From: a virus
Lineage: Duplodnaviria > Heunggongvirae > Uroviricota > Caudoviricetes
Virus record (IMG/VR): IMGVR_UViG_2850808358_000005
Length of the DNA stretch: 64,000 nt
Reading direction: 5' to 3' (one strand)
Part shown: positions 3,917 through 55,377 of the stretch, piece after piece
Numbering within the stretch: position 1 is the stretch's first letter
Layout: every line of letters starts with the position of its first letter
The notes under the pieces: model-generated
Seen by the model: only the letters and a program-made list of their open reading frames with translations
Databases searched by the model: none
What the model was told of the DNA's origin: nothing
Position numbers and translations under genes: made by a program

Positions 3917-4192
3917 CCGGCACCCCGGACAGGGCGCAATATGACCCCGGTAATGAATGCTCTGAACATCCCGTAATGAAAAATTGTGGGGATGCTATAT
4001 ACGTTCCGGTGGGAGTACTGGGCACTGAAATCCCCACCGGTCCCAGTCGTGAGCCTCTGTATGACTGCCCCTGACAAGTCTGATGACTTTATCACCGTCA
4101 GCTTCTCCCTGGTACGCAGCAATAATCAGCCCGCCAATGTCAGGGTCTCTGAGGTGTACTGGCAATAGCGGACACTACCATTTGTTCTTTTT

Positions 4193-5011
4193 TTAAGCAG
4201 CCATCTGATGATATTTTTCCCTGAAGGCTGCCGGGGAGATATTCCCCAGACGAGAGTGACGACGCTGACGATTGTAGAAAATCTCAATGTATTCCCGTAT
4301 TACTGAGATGGCTTCATCCCGGTTATTAAAACGATAGTGGCTCAGGCTCTCATTTTTCAGCGTTCCCCAGAAGCTTTCCATCGGAGCGTTGTCGTAACAG
4401 TTACCTTTACGCGACATTGATGTTTTCAGACCAAACTGCTCCTGTATGACCCGGTAATCGTATGCGCAGTACTGTGAACCTCGATCAGAGTGGTGGATTA
4501 GCCCGGCAGGTGGGCGCTGGCTCCTGAGCGCCATAAACAGGGCTTTACCTGTCAGCTCTTTTGTCATGCGCTCTCCCATGGCGTAGCCGACAATTTCGCA
4601 CGTATAAACATCTTTGATGCCAGCGAGGTACAACCATCCCTCCTGTGTGGCAACATACGTCAGGTCCGCCACCCAGACCTGATTTGGTGCTGTAGGAGCG
4701 AACGTCTGGTTCAGCAGATTTGGCGCAACTGGCAGATTGTGGTTCGGGTTCGTAGTCGCTCTGAACTTGCGTTTCTGCTTACAGCGTAGCCTTAGCTCCT
4801 TACGAAGACGTGCCAGTCGGTCACGACCAACGATGATGCCATTCTCTGCCAGCTCCGTCTGGAGCCGCCGGGTTCCATATGTTTCGCGAGTGCGGATATG
4901 TGCCACCTTAATCTCCAGTTTTAGCCGCTCATCACTTTGTTTTCTGTCTGAGGGTTCATGCTGTACCCGGTTGTAATAACCGCTCCTGGATACACCAAAT
5001 ACCTGACACAT
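4193..5011 (-). CDS. IS600 OrfB transposase (DDE integrase domain)
   Basis: 272-aa ORF MCQVFGVSRSGYY...; IS3-family OrfB. Confidence 0.9.
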   Translation of the reverse strand: MCQVFGVSRSGYYNRVQHEPSDRKQSDERLKLEIKVAHIRTRETYGTRRLQTELAENGIIVGRDRLARLRKELRLRCKQKRKFRATTNPNHNLPVAPNLLNQTFAPTAPNQVWVADLTYVATQEGWLYLAGIKDVYTCEIVGYAMGERMTKELTGKALFMALRSQRPPAGLIHHSDRGSQYCAYDYRVIQEQFGLKTSMSRKGNCYDNAPMESFWGTLKNESLSHYRFNNRDEAISVIREYIEIFYNRQRRHSRLGNISPAAFREKYHQMAA

Positions 5012-5046
5012 CGCTTCAATGGGAAATTGTTGTCGCCATTGTTCGA

Positions 5047-5349
5047 TTAACGCGTATTTTTCAGCGACTCCTGTGCAAAATACGCTGTTGCTTTTTTTAA
5101 TATATCTCGCTCAAGGCGAGCTTCATTTAACGCCTTACGCAGTTGCAGAATTTCAGATTCCAGTTCAGCCACCGTGCGGGAACCAGGAGTACCGAGCCCT
5201 TTTCTGGCGGCGGTAACCCATTGTCCTAAAGTGCCTTCAGGAAGGGATAATCGGGAAGCGCCTTCACTGATCGAAAGTTGATTTTCAAGAACCGTTCTGA
5301 CAGCTTCGGCTTTGAACTCTTTAGAGTAACGTTGGGTTTTTCTGCTCAT
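5047..5349 (-). CDS. IS600 OrfA (HTH transposase N-terminal protein)
   Basis: 100-aa ORF MSRKTQRYSKEFKAEAVRTV...; ends at the A7 slippery run. Confidence 0.9.
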   Translation of the reverse strand: MSRKTQRYSKEFKAEAVRTVLENQLSISEGASRLSLPEGTLGQWVTAARKGLGTPGSRTVAELESEILQLRKALNEARLERDILKKATAYFAQESLKNTR

Positions 5350-5413
5350 TATTAGCTCCTTCTGATGCCATTCTATTTCAGGAAGGAGTGTCCGTTAAAC
5401 TCAGGCTACCTCA

Positions 5414-6400
5414 CTCCCCATCTGTTGCGGACAGAGCTCGCCACGATTCTGTAAATAATATCTTCTGTGGTTATATTTATTTTCACCCAGCCAGTTAGTC
5501 TGGATATGGGCCAGTAGCAGTAGCGGGTGTGATAAATGGGGCCGTTAATGCCGTAAAAAGTAAGGGATTTGGCTCTGTACCGCGGTTCTGTTGTCTCAGG
5601 GCGTGCATCAGTCCACCGGATGCTGAGCACCCCTTCAAACCGTGTGTCGGGTATGATGATGTCGTAGGGCCAGCAACGGAATATTCACCTGGCAGCGCAT
5701 TCCTTACCCAGGCCAGGAAATCACTCTTAGTGTCAAAACGGATAACATCTTCAGGCAGAAAAGCACGCCCAAAGCCGAATGCGCCGGGTATCGCCAGACG
5801 GCCTTTTGTCCGGTCGTAAATGTCGCTCTGTGCTTCCATCGTGGCTGCACTTTTCAGCCCCAGATTATCCCGGGACTTCTGTTGTGCCTTTTCGCCTGCT
5901 GCTGCGATTTCAGACAGATGGTTAGCCGTTTTCAGAGTGCCGGTCAGCGCAGCATCAATGTCATTTTTGGCCTGTTCTGCTGCGCGGGCATAACCTGCGG
6001 CTGCCGCCACATCCTGCGCCGTCTGCTGTGCGTTTCCGGCTGCGGCCCCGGCGCTCTGCTGCGCCTGCGCCACCATTTCCTCAAAGCGTTTGACGACATC
6101 CGGTTTCAGGTCGCCCTCATCAGGAGCAATCAGAAAGTCATTCAGCGTGCCGGGCTTTGAGTCCTCATATACAGCAATGTCGCCAACGTTGTACTCGTTG
6201 CGCCAGTCCTGTTTCAGATACACACCATATTTTCCAGTCCGCGCATGGAAACAGTATTCACCATCGTTTCCTGTCATCACATCAGCAACAGTGTGCATAA
6301 CCACTTCCGGGGTGTTTACCCGGGATTTCAGAATAATATGGTATCCGGACATGGGGATACCTGCGCCATCAGTCAGCGCACCTGATATCACTACAAACAT
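5414..6400 (-). pseudogene. Lambda Stf-like side tail-fibre gene, frameshifted and split by IS600 (C-terminal remainder ~3867..4149)
   Basis: N-terminus MFVVISGALTDGAGIP...VYEDSKPGTLNDFL resembles lambda Stf N-terminus; the C-terminal part is shared with 53115..54113 but with indels. Confidence 0.6.
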
Positions 6401-6423
6401 TGTTTTTCTCGCGATAAATTAAA

Positions 6424-53114: not shown

Positions 53115-54113
53115 TCACGATGTGCGAATAAAAAGCCCGGGCATTGCGCCAGAGACATGTGCATCCGGCACCCCGGACAGGGCGCAATATGACCCCGGTA
53201 ATGAATGCTCTGAACATCCCGTAATGAAAAATTGTGGGGATGCTATATACGTTCCGGTGGGAGTACTGGGCACTGAAATCCCCACCGGTCCCAGTCGTGA
53301 GCCTCTGTATGACAGCCCCCTGACAAGTCTGATGACTTTATCACCGTCAGCTTCTCCCTGGTACGCAGCAATAATCAGCCCGCCAATGTCAGGGTCTCCC
53401 CATCTGTTGCGGACAGAGCTCGCCACGATTCTGTAAATAATATCTTCTGTGGTTATATTTATTTTCACCCAGTCAGTCTGGATATGGGCCAGTAGCAGTA
53501 GCGGGTGTGATAAATGGGGCCGTTAATGCCGTAAAAAGTAAGGGATTTGGCTCTGTACCGCGGTTCTATTGTCTCAGGGTGTGCATCAGTCCACCGGATG
53601 CTGAGCACCCCTTCAAACCGTGTGTCGGGTATGATGCCCTGGCGGCCAGCAACGGAATACTCACCTGGCAGCGCATTCCTTACCCAGGCCAGGAAATCAC
53701 TCTTAGTGTCAAAACGGATAACATCTTCAGGCAGAAAAGCACACCCAAAGCCGAATGCGCCGGGTATCGCCAGACGGCCTTTTGTCCGGTCGTAAATGTC
53801 GCTCTGTGCTTCCATCGTGGCCGCACTTTTCAGCCCCAGATTATCCCGGGACTTCTGTTGTGCCTTTTCGCCTGCTGCTGCGATTTCAGACAGATGGTTA
53901 GCCGTTTTCAGAGTGCCGGTCAGCGCAGCATCAATGTCATTTTTGGCCTGTTCTGCTGCGCGGGCATAACCTGCGGCTGCCTGTGCACGCTGACCGGATA
54001 AGACGGCGTTTTTCCCCGTGCTTTTCACGTCTTCCGCTGTGGCCTTTCTGTTCTCAGCTGTGACGGTTGCATCCTGTCGGGCTTTCTCCGCAAAACGTTG
54101 TGCATCATCACGG
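53115..54113 (-). pseudogene. Side tail-fibre gene fragment, 5'-truncated by IS600 copy 5, internal stop
   Basis: ORFs 53465..54145 and 53115..53468 share ...AAAGYARAAEQAKNDIDAALTGTLKT... with 5495..6400. Confidence 0.6.
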
Positions 54114-54156
54114 TGAGGTGTACTGGCAATAGCGGACACTACCATTTGTTCTTTTT

Positions 54157-54975
54157 TTAAGCAGCCATCTGATGATATTTTTCCCTGAAGGCTGCCGGGG
54201 AGATATTCCCCAGACGAGAGTGACGACGCTGACGATTGTAGAAAATCTCAATGTATTCCCGTATTACTGAGATGGCTTCATCCCGGTTATTAAAACGATA
54301 GTGGCTCAGGCTCTCATTTTTCAGCGTTCCCCAGAAGCTTTCCATCGGAGCGTTGTCGTAACAGTTACCTTTACGCGACATTGATGTTTTCAGACCAAAC
54401 TGCTCCTGTATGACCCGGTAATCGTATGCGCAGTACTGTGAACCTCGATCAGAGTGGTGGATTAGCCCGGCAGGTGGGCGCTGGCTCCTGAGCGCCATAA
54501 ACAGGGCTTTACCTGTCAGCTCTTTTGTCATGCGCTCTCCCATGGCGTAGCCGACAATTTCGCACGTATAAACATCTTTGATGCCAGCGAGGTACAACCA
54601 TCCCTCCTGTGTGGCAACATACGTCAGGTCCGCCACCCAGACCTGATTTGGTGCTGTAGGAGCGAACGTCTGGTTCAGCAGATTTGGCGCAACTGGCAGA
54701 TTGTGGTTCGGGTTCGTAGTCGCTCTGAACTTGCGTTTCTGCTTACAGCGTAGCCTTAGCTCCTTACGAAGACGTGCCAGTCGGTCACGACCAACGATGA
54801 TGCCATTCTCTGCCAGCTCCGTCTGGAGCCGCCGGGTTCCATATGTTTCGCGAGTGCGGATATGTGCCACCTTAATCTCCTGTTTTAGCCGCTCATCACT
54901 TTGTTTTCTGTCTGAGGGTTCATGCTGTACCCGGTTGTAATAACCGCTCCTGGATACACCAAATACCTGACACAT
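54157..54975 (-). CDS. IS600 OrfB transposase
   Basis: 272 aa (ERLKQEIKV variant). Confidence 0.9.
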   Translation of the reverse strand: MCQVFGVSRSGYYNRVQHEPSDRKQSDERLKQEIKVAHIRTRETYGTRRLQTELAENGIIVGRDRLARLRKELRLRCKQKRKFRATTNPNHNLPVAPNLLNQTFAPTAPNQVWVADLTYVATQEGWLYLAGIKDVYTCEIVGYAMGERMTKELTGKALFMALRSQRPPAGLIHHSDRGSQYCAYDYRVIQEQFGLKTSMSRKGNCYDNAPMESFWGTLKNESLSHYRFNNRDEAISVIREYIEIFYNRQRRHSRLGNISPAAFREKYHQMAA

Positions 54976-55010
54976 CGCTTCAATGGGAAATTGTTGTCGC
55001 CATTGTTCGA

Positions 55011-55313
55011 TTAACGCGTATTTTTCAGCGACTCCTGTGCAAAATACGCTGTTGCTTTTTTTAATATATCTCGCTCAAGGCGAGCTTCATTTAACGCCTT
55101 ACGCAGTTGCAGAATTTCAGATTCCAGTTCAGCCACCGTGCGGGAACCAGGAGTACCGAGCCCTTTTCTGGCGGCGGTAACCCATTGTCCTAAAGTGCCT
55201 TCAGGAAGGGATAATCGGGAAGCGCCTTCACTGATCGAAAGTTGATTTTCAAGAACCGTTCTGACAGCTTCGGCTTTGAACTCTTTAGAGTAACGTTGGG
55301 TTTTTCTGCTCAT
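55011..55313 (-). CDS. IS600 OrfA
   Basis: 100 aa. Confidence 0.9.
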   Translation of the reverse strand: MSRKTQRYSKEFKAEAVRTVLENQLSISEGASRLSLPEGTLGQWVTAARKGLGTPGSRTVAELESEILQLRKALNEARLERDILKKATAYFAQESLKNTR

Positions 55314-55377
55314 TATTAGCTCCTTCTGATGCCATTCTATTTCAGGAAGGAGTGTCCGTTAAACTCAGGCTACCTCA

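Follow-up and report, generated by a model that had tools for sequence, protein, structure and literature searches.

IS600 insertions dated by their empty sites in an ipaH/tail fiber cassette probably common to two tandem prophages at the sdsR/ryeA locus

A 64,000-nucleotide stretch of tailed-phage DNA (IMG/VR record IMGVR_UViG_2850808358_000005; here called the window) holds five copies of the insertion sequence (IS) IS600 and two copies of a 5-kb repeat that carries ipaH and tail fiber genes, each repeat being interrupted by one IS600 copy at a place where the other is not. The question raised by this arrangement is when the IS600 copies arrived relative to the event by which the repeat came to be present twice. 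A first-pass annotation of the sequence had answered that the insertions in the two repeats (IS600 copies 1 and 4) post-date a duplication. Part of that answer is retained here. Neither copy 1 nor copy 4 is found in the opposite repeat or in any of the outgroup genomes examined, so both postdate the split of the two cassettes from their last common ancestor. There is, however, no one duplication that could serve as a date. The two repeats, designated A and B, are probably the common end cassette of two different prophages that lie in tandem, and a fifth IS600 copy next to repeat B marks a later rearrangement.

The window represents the pphA side of the pphA-yebY interval, and the sequence was read over the window-equivalent positions 1-71874 of CP026877.1. 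Two of the loci used for comparison (labeled L001, L002, and so on) resample the window and are not independent of it: L020 is identical to window positions 37564-58640 (CP026877.1), and positions 1-7222 of L024 correspond to window-equivalent positions 64653-71874. The same capsid variant is present in the related assembly GCA_003572525.1 and in the runs SRR6049580 and SRR1811640.

IS600 is an IS3-family element that moves by copy-out/paste-in transposition and generates 3-bp target duplications. Self-comparison of the window revealed five copies of one element of 1264-1265 bp, with 0 to 3 differences from each other. Copy 1 is identical at 1263 of 1264 positions (99.9%) to an element annotated in RefSeq as "IS3-like element IS600 family transposase" in the enteroinvasive Escherichia coli (EIEC) strain VL7S7, and the identification as IS600 rests on this RefSeq-annotated element. 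The copies start with TGAGGT and end with ACCTCA, within an imperfect terminal inverted repeat of ~27 bp. They contain two open reading frames (ORFs), orfA (100 amino acids [aa]; HTH_Tnp_1) and orfB (272 aa; HTH_21, rve, rve_3, and rve_2), which overlap at an A7G slippery run, TTAAAAAAAG, a putative -1 programmed frameshift motif. Membership in the IS600/IS3 family was thus indicated by full-length near-identity, two overlapping ORFs, a 3-bp duplication, and TG...CA ends. Compared with the IS600 of Shigella and EIEC (IS3 family, IS3 group), the window copies share the length of 1264 bp, the TG/CA ends, the ORF layout, the slippery site, and the 3-bp duplications, and they differ in nothing essential. 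The only departure is in copy 3, whose slippery run has one extra A (A8 versus A7 in the other copies; TTAAAAAAAAG), by which orfA and orfB are fused in frame into a continuous 385-aa OrfAB ORF (45063-46220, - strand). This extra A could be either a real mutation or a long-read homopolymer error; to judge from its sequence, the fused ORF would be the equivalent of an engineered, constitutive OrfAB transposase. Single-nucleotide polymorphisms (SNPs) among the five copies (0 to 3 private differences per copy) did not provide a usable ordering of the insertions and the rearrangement.

Matching 3-bp flanks were found for four of the five copies (Table 1), and the probability of at least four matches among five by chance is p = 3e-7. 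For copies 1 and 4, the window contains its own controls. The empty site of copy 1, gggtctccccatctg, is present exactly once in the window, at 53392-53406 in repeat B, and that of copy 4, cagcattccagacacg, is present exactly once, at 3551-3566 in repeat A. In each pair, the filled site is accounted for by the empty site, the IS, and 3 additional bp. The first-pass annotation had described a CTC target site duplication (TSD) for copy 1 in the tail fiber gene of repeat A, with the uninterrupted site in repeat B, and this was confirmed base for base. Its TTC duplication for copy 4 and the intact counterpart in repeat A were borne out as well. Only its name for the gene hit by copy 4, an assembly gene, has to be given up: Pfam and PHROGs identify this gene as DUF4376/"tail fiber protein," and the assembly gene (Caudo_TAP) is a separate gene further along.

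As a control from outside the window, 50-nucleotide (nt) empty-site probes (25 nt per side) were compared with other genomes, with 0-2 mismatches. The probe for copy 1 matched eight independent loci (L001, L002, L006, L007, L011, L012, L014, and L015) as well as the site in repeat B, and the probe for copy 4 matched L001, L002, L011, L012, and L015 as well as repeat A (3534-3583). Matches to the copy 2 probe were obtained in two EIEC genomes (L001 and L002), and matches to the copy 3 probe were obtained in two genomes (L018 and L019), one of which is E. coli 53638. Strains that lack these IS copies therefore supply empty sites for all of copies 1-4, which shows that the IS ends were placed correctly and that the insertions are derived. 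Misassigned IS termini, with flanking triplets that are not true duplications, had been named in the first-pass annotation as what would overturn its reading; this possibility is ruled out by the exact fit of the empty sites, paralogous as well as orthologous. All four of these copies are simple, derived insertions.

The nature of the repeats became apparent from their left edges, both of which are attachment sites. Repeat A starts at an attL-type junction (pphA flank, core at 792-823, and ipaH arm) that is contiguous with pphA in many other genomes. Repeat B follows with a period of 47,979 bp and starts at an internal, attP-like P-O-P' junction, composed of an integrase (P) arm, the core, and a P' arm. 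The integrase arm of single lysogens matches the window up to 48802 (48400-48802 at 99.75%), and the attL-type arm (792 onward) matches it again from 48771. Elsewhere, in single lysogens, an identical 358-aa integrase is the last gene before yebY-yebZ-yobA-holE. Because the left edge of repeat B is an att core with the integrase arm of the preceding prophage to its left, we interpret the repeats as the homologous ends of two tandem prophages. Two core positions differ between repeats A and B, with bacterial-type bases at 792 and phage-type bases at 48771, as predicted by site-specific integration beside a resident prophage. An independent precedent is provided by E. coli 6817, in which a similar P-O-P' junction is followed by an nleC effector gene and tail fiber genes.

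The first of the two prophages (prophage 1; 792 to ~48802) is nearly full-length and of the myovirus type, with a Rac-like early region and an integrase. Its genes are arranged in the order ipaH, tail fiber, baseplate, tape measure, tail, head, terminase, lysis, transfer RNA (tRNA) cluster, Q, replication, cI/cro, recombination, xis, and int. The possibility that the second (prophage 2) is a diverged copy of the first was ruled out: self-comparison showed that the window past 53981 lacks nucleotide similarity to prophage 1, and the tape measure genes of the two prophages belong to different PHROG families.

In the single lysogen L019 (11205-11349), the core falls inside SraC/RyeA, at its start, and inside SdsR/RyeB, at its 3' end (Rfam). 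There are no Rfam matches to SdsR or RyeA within the window, so the intact small RNA (sRNA) pair, if still present, would lie beyond the second prophage. The last 23 bp of ryeB have been reported as a phage integration site, and the ryeA/ryeB sRNA locus is an insertion hot spot (PMC7380047). Relative to prophage integration at ryeA/ryeB (sraC/sdsR) as described by Balbontin et al. in 2008 and summarized in PMC7380047, the window has the same core overlap and the same pphA/yebY site. It differs from the Salmonella phage, with its 23-bp core, in having a 32-bp overlap with two polymorphic positions, and it differs from the integration as described in that two different prophages stand in tandem with an attP-like junction between them.

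Taken as a whole, the locus is in our view probably best explained by tandem prophages with a shared ipaH/tail fiber end cassette, into which IS600 inserted later and in which copy 5 represents a secondary rearrangement. We infer the order of phage integration as follows. Two different phages would have integrated at sdsR/ryeA, the end of the second coming to lie directly after the integrase arm of prophage 1, and both would have carried the same exchangeable end cassette, consisting of an att arm, the sRNA gene CssrB, ipaH, a DUF4376 gene, and a distal tail fiber gene. IS600 would then have inserted independently at four places. In prophage 1, the interrupted genes are a "prophage tail fiber N-terminal domain" gene (copy 1; ~codon 328 of 422, a position taken from L001), a DUF2612 baseplate gene (copy 2), and an AAA_24 gene of the early region (copy 3); in prophage 2, copy 4 has split the DUF4376 gene of repeat B near codon 120 of its 207.

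Divergence between the repeats was computed from a pairwise alignment with the IS elements removed, and it proved to be uneven. From the core to the copy 4 site, there is 1 event in 2740 bp (one 1-nt indel, with the two core SNPs excluded). Between the copy 4 site and the copy 1 site, there are 4 events in 593 bp (p = 0.004 versus 1/2740), and from the copy 1 site to the end there are 12 events in 590 bp (~2%), corresponding to 17 differing alignment columns. The first and last segments differ with a Fisher p value of 9.5e-9, and the uniform divergence expected of a simple segmental duplication is not what we observed. In the last segment, repeat A differs from the EIEC locus L001 in 2 of 590 columns and from repeat B in 17 of 590, and repeat B is nearest to a different allele, that of L015. 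In the first segment, no other sequence is as close to A or to B as they are to each other; outside the core, 4 of 1459 positions distinguish each of them from L017, and A and B agree at these positions. Past 6005 and 53981, the two tail fiber genes have N-terminal parts of different types.

The ipaH parts may owe their near-identity to a recent exchange between phages, to gene conversion, or to a local duplication, and the last of these leads to an alternative for the locus as a whole. In this alternative, a genuine duplication occurred within the genome, by unequal exchange at the att cores or by reintegration of the same phage, after which the second copy was largely replaced or deleted and IS600 inserted. 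Such a history would account for the single 1-nt indel in the first 2740 bp, for the variants that A and B share and that were unseen in other strains, and for the repeat period, which equals the length of prophage 1; a P-O-P' junction is also expected of a tandem duplication of a prophage. The last 590 bp are difficult to reconcile with it, as A is close to an EIEC allele there and B is close to a different one. The same applies to the region past 53981, where a different tail fiber type is followed by a tail module without nucleotide similarity to prophage 1, and extra replacement events would be needed. We therefore regard a genuine duplication as unlikely.

A further alternative is suggested by the step in divergence around the copy 4 site. 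If older paralogous cassettes had been homogenized by gene conversion, copy 4 could predate the last homogenization, and the copy 4 site (3558) indeed falls inside the interval 3166-3768, between the last difference on its left and the first on its right. However, the position of the change point is resolved to no better than 600 bp, the same pattern would result from a crossover between phages that preceded integration, and there is no direct evidence of conversion tracts, which makes this alternative quite improbable. With the repeats read as the common cassette of two prophages, timing the IS insertions "relative to the duplication" is not meaningful as stated, and the duplication framing should be replaced by one of tandem prophages with a common ipaH/tail fiber cassette.

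Copy 5 is the only copy without a TSD. The first-pass annotation had reported its unequal flanks (cgg versus gtg) and the joining of a tail fiber fragment to a tape measure fragment, both of which we found, and had taken them as the signature of an IS-mediated deletion, which fits but is one of two readings with the same local picture. Left of copy 5, positions 53982-54113 are no longer homologous to repeat A and are 95-97.6% identical to tail fiber genes of EIEC ipaH islands. The gene fragment on the right is 99.5% identical to part of the prophage of E. coli C7 (L003:12001-12665), and the RefSeq name in other genomes that match it is lytic transglycosylase domain protein. The C7 homologue lies between baseplate and tail genes, and its C-terminal part resembles tape measure/transglycosylase families; the label "tape measure fragment" thus derives from gene position and from similarity in a part of the protein that is absent here. 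Order and strand are the same in the intact relatives L001, L003, L006, and L028 (cassette, tail fiber, tfa, tail fiber, baseplate, and tape measure). The distance between the two break points is 8.3 kb for the VL40 type and ~10.4 kb for the C7 type.

Copy 5 is thereby like known TSD-less IS scars of deletion or inversion: one of the five copies lacks a TSD, and its flanks are nonadjacent parts of a conserved gene order. An adjacent deletion, recombination of two direct copies, and an inversion with an outside partner look alike in the sequence here. No TSD was lost in copies 1-4, so the window contains no reciprocal partner of copy 5. Proteins of the VL40 or C7 type from the missing region have no identical counterpart encoded in the window. 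A look-up of the lysozyme common to the two prophages gave ten other genomes, and a homologue search with a C7-type baseplate-region protein, followed by an exact look-up, gave a single, unrelated contig. An inversion between copies 4 and 5 was ruled out, the TSD and empty site of copy 4 being intact. From the conserved gene order, we are inclined to favor an intraprophage deletion, with some reservation. Either one copy that acted on the DNA next to it or a pair of directly oriented IS600 copies would have removed ~8-10 kb of prophage 2, including tail fiber, baseplate, and tape measure sequences, and would have left a single IS with unrelated flanks.

Several points weigh against the explanation by tandem prophages with a deletion at copy 5. 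The attR of prophage 2 next to yebY does not lie within the sequence read (to 71874). The near-identity of the first 2.7 kb could stem from a true local duplication or from gene conversion, and several 1-nt differences, the A8 run of copy 3 included, could be long-read homopolymer errors. Among sequenced relatives, none was found to combine the tail fiber type of the left flank with the tape measure type of the right flank; the left-flank type occurs only in EIEC ipaH islands (10 genomes), where it is linked to other tape measure types. The closest relatives of the left flank are located at pphA or yecD sites, and the closest right-flank relative examined (C7) is located at the Rac site, by uspF. 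Past the window, the fragment of prophage 2 gives way to an IS110 fragment and then to trkG and lysis genes that are 98.7% identical to those of the Rac prophage of E. coli H2. Part of what we call prophage 2 may hence have been brought in by a larger rearrangement.

The second reading of copy 5 builds on these chromosomal sites. It assumes homologous recombination between IS600 copies of two prophages, namely, an ipaH prophage (sdsR/pphA) and a C7-type/Rac prophage (ttcA-uspF). An inversion between the two sites would produce a colinear, same-strand, TSD-less hybrid and a reciprocal junction elsewhere in the genome. On the K-12 map, the terminus separates the sdsR and Rac sites, whose prophages face in opposite directions. 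Given this opposite orientation, inverted IS600 recombination would also yield a colinear TSD-less hybrid like the one observed. The flanks of copy 5, with their different nearest relatives at different chromosomal sites, are consistent with such an event, as is the right fragment, which is bounded by ISs on both sides and continues into trkG-Rz-R-S-Q in the direction of the H2 Rac prophage; rearrangements between homologous IS copies have been described as common in Shigella (PMC7373316). On the other hand, the ipaH cassette is demonstrably mosaic, being found on at least three tail backbones, which makes a natural hybrid phage plausible; the inversion junction could equally be the IS110 fragment instead of copy 5; and no reciprocal junction was seen within the sequence read (1-71874). 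Recombination between two prophages is accordingly possible, if less than likely. Two more far-reaching proposals, which we consider doubtful, are that copy 5 and the IS110/IS4 junctions record a terminus-spanning inversion that fused the sdsR/ryeA ipaH prophage with the Rac-locus prophage and, separately, that copy 3 is a natural constitutive OrfAB fusion serving as a hyperactive transposase source for a local IS600 burst. If the terminus-spanning inversion were true, the locus would hold parts of three prophages in addition to two identical ipaH3-type genes.

TABLE 1 Coordinates of the repeats, IS elements, attachment core, and other features in the window
Feature	Position	Strand	Remarks
Repeat A	792..6005		Interrupted by copy 1; also includes P' arm and distal tail fiber gene
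attL core (repeat A)	792-823		
CssrB (repeat A)	1089-1271	-	
ipaH (repeat A)	1400-3115	+	
DUF4376 gene (repeat A)	3294-3917	-	Frameshifted
IS600 copy 1	4150..5413	-	1264 bp; TSD CTC (ctc/ctc)
IS600 copy 2	8606..9869	+	TSD GAG on + strand (CTC in IS orientation)
RalA, sok/hok, tRNA cluster, sRNA-Xcc1 (prophage 1)	47027-47206, 33581-33756, 31040-31350, 41087-41176		
IS600 copy 3	45020..46284	-	1265 bp; TSD GCT
Tyrosine integrase (prophage 1)	47564..48640	+	Identical protein adjoins yebY in single lysogens
Repeat B	48771..53981		Interrupted by copy 4; also includes P' arm, DUF4376 gene, and distal tail fiber gene
Attachment core (attP-like, repeat B)	48771..48802		32-bp overlap; integrase-side arm and ipaH-side arm
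CssrB (repeat B)	49068-49250	-	
ipaH (repeat B)	49379-51094	+	
IS600 copy 4	51539..52802	+	TSD TTC
Left flank of copy 5: C-terminal part of prophage 2 tail fiber gene	53465..54113	-	phage_tail_N type; without ~134-137 N-terminal codons
IS600 copy 5	54114..55377	-	No TSD (CGG/GTG); IS ends as in other copies
Right flank of copy 5: tape-measure-like/lytic-transglycosylase gene	55378..56045	-	First 222 of 691 codons
IS4	62470..63895		~12-bp duplication; head region of prophage 2 fragment

The table also gives the positions of features that lie apart from the repeats. Prophage 1 carries RalA (the antitoxin of RalR), a sok/hok module, a cluster of four tRNA genes (Gly, Thr, Arg, and Met), and a match to sRNA-Xcc1. 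Its IS600 copies 1 and 2 are mutually inverted and bracket 3.2 kb of tail fiber genes, and with their equal TSDs (CTC) they form a composite-transposon-like arrangement. An inversion of this 3.2-kb segment would be masked by the identical TSDs; it was ruled out because the empty-site probes are colinear and ~3190 bp apart in L001 and L002. Repeat A has three private 1-nt deletions (3166, 3779, and 4067) relative to repeat B and all other aligned genomes, two of which adjoin C-runs and may be sequencing errors. The deletion at 3779 frameshifts the DUF4376 ORF of repeat A, in which the copy 4 site is intact; the DUF4376 ORF of repeat B is intact after removal of the IS in silico. In L017 (CP024694.1), positions 7051-11811 contain the same integrase and att arms, with a 281-aa ipaH fragment joined directly to DUF1187-xis-int. 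In this locus, a prophage of the same type and site as prophage 1 has independently undergone a large internal deletion.

Further lesions are found in the right part of prophage 2. On the - strand at 57546-58511, between tail genes for 314-aa and 147-aa proteins, a 445-aa gene that is intact in C7 (L003) and in L025 is broken up into three ORFs (of 91, 83, and 138 aa), a pattern that points to frameshifts or errors in sequencing. The IS4 insertion in the head region belongs to the same decay process as the IS600 insertions. Past the window, the IS110 fragment stands between truncated copies of two genes, a Pa193_gp24-like head gene and trkG (L024), and forms a further IS-bounded junction. The trkG-Rz-R-S-Q genes after it run in the uspF-to-ttcA direction, like those of the E. 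coli H2 Rac prophage.

The cassette at the end of both prophages is of wider occurrence. Each repeat has a full-length Rfam match to CssrB (chromosome-encoded Shigella sRNA B) upstream of ipaH, so that this sRNA is part of the repeated unit, and the two ipaH copies are identical genes for a 571-aa IpaH3-type protein, 48 kb apart in one locus. As in ipaH islands elsewhere, ipaH (LRR_TTSS and NEL domains) is situated between an att arm and tail fiber genes; in relatives, it adjoins the remnant of a DNA invertase gene. In EIEC and other Shigella genomes, this cassette is located at pphA as well as elsewhere. For the site described here, the other genomes examined each show a single ipaH, in contrast to the two identical copies in the window, and in E. 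coli 6817 the position held by ipaH in the window is occupied by nleC. In EIEC, the ipaH/DUF4376/tail fiber cassette is associated with at least three tail backbones, two of myovirus types and one of a lambda-like siphovirus, from which we conclude that it is an exchangeable mosaic module. Five loci from other Shigella genomes with an identical IpaH (L008, L009, L010, L013, and L016) have IS600 at a different site upstream of ipaH, equivalent to window positions 1144-1147, and IS1, IS66, and IS110 debris lies at the same ipaH island in these genomes. As judged from these sequences, the ipaH island appears to have been struck by IS600 repeatedly and independently.

What the window records is ordinary Shigella genome decay. 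IS600 expansion, IS deletions, integration at ryeA/ryeB, and effector cargo at the tail fiber end were all already known; in particular, the expansion of IS600 in Shigella and EIEC, the disruption of genes by it, and IS-mediated deletions and rearrangements between IS copies have been described (PMC7373316). The locus is nevertheless a clean, internally controlled example of IS600 eroding prophages in Shigella/EIEC, in which empty sites, both paralogous and orthologous, prove four of the insertions and the remaining copy marks a rearrangement; outside this genome, its importance is slight. For annotation, the 5-kb repeat would be recorded as the common cassette of two tandem prophages at sdsR/ryeA and not as a segmental duplication. 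For the biology of ipaH, the window provides one locus with two identical ipaH3-type genes and an effector cassette that moves between unrelated phage tail backbones.

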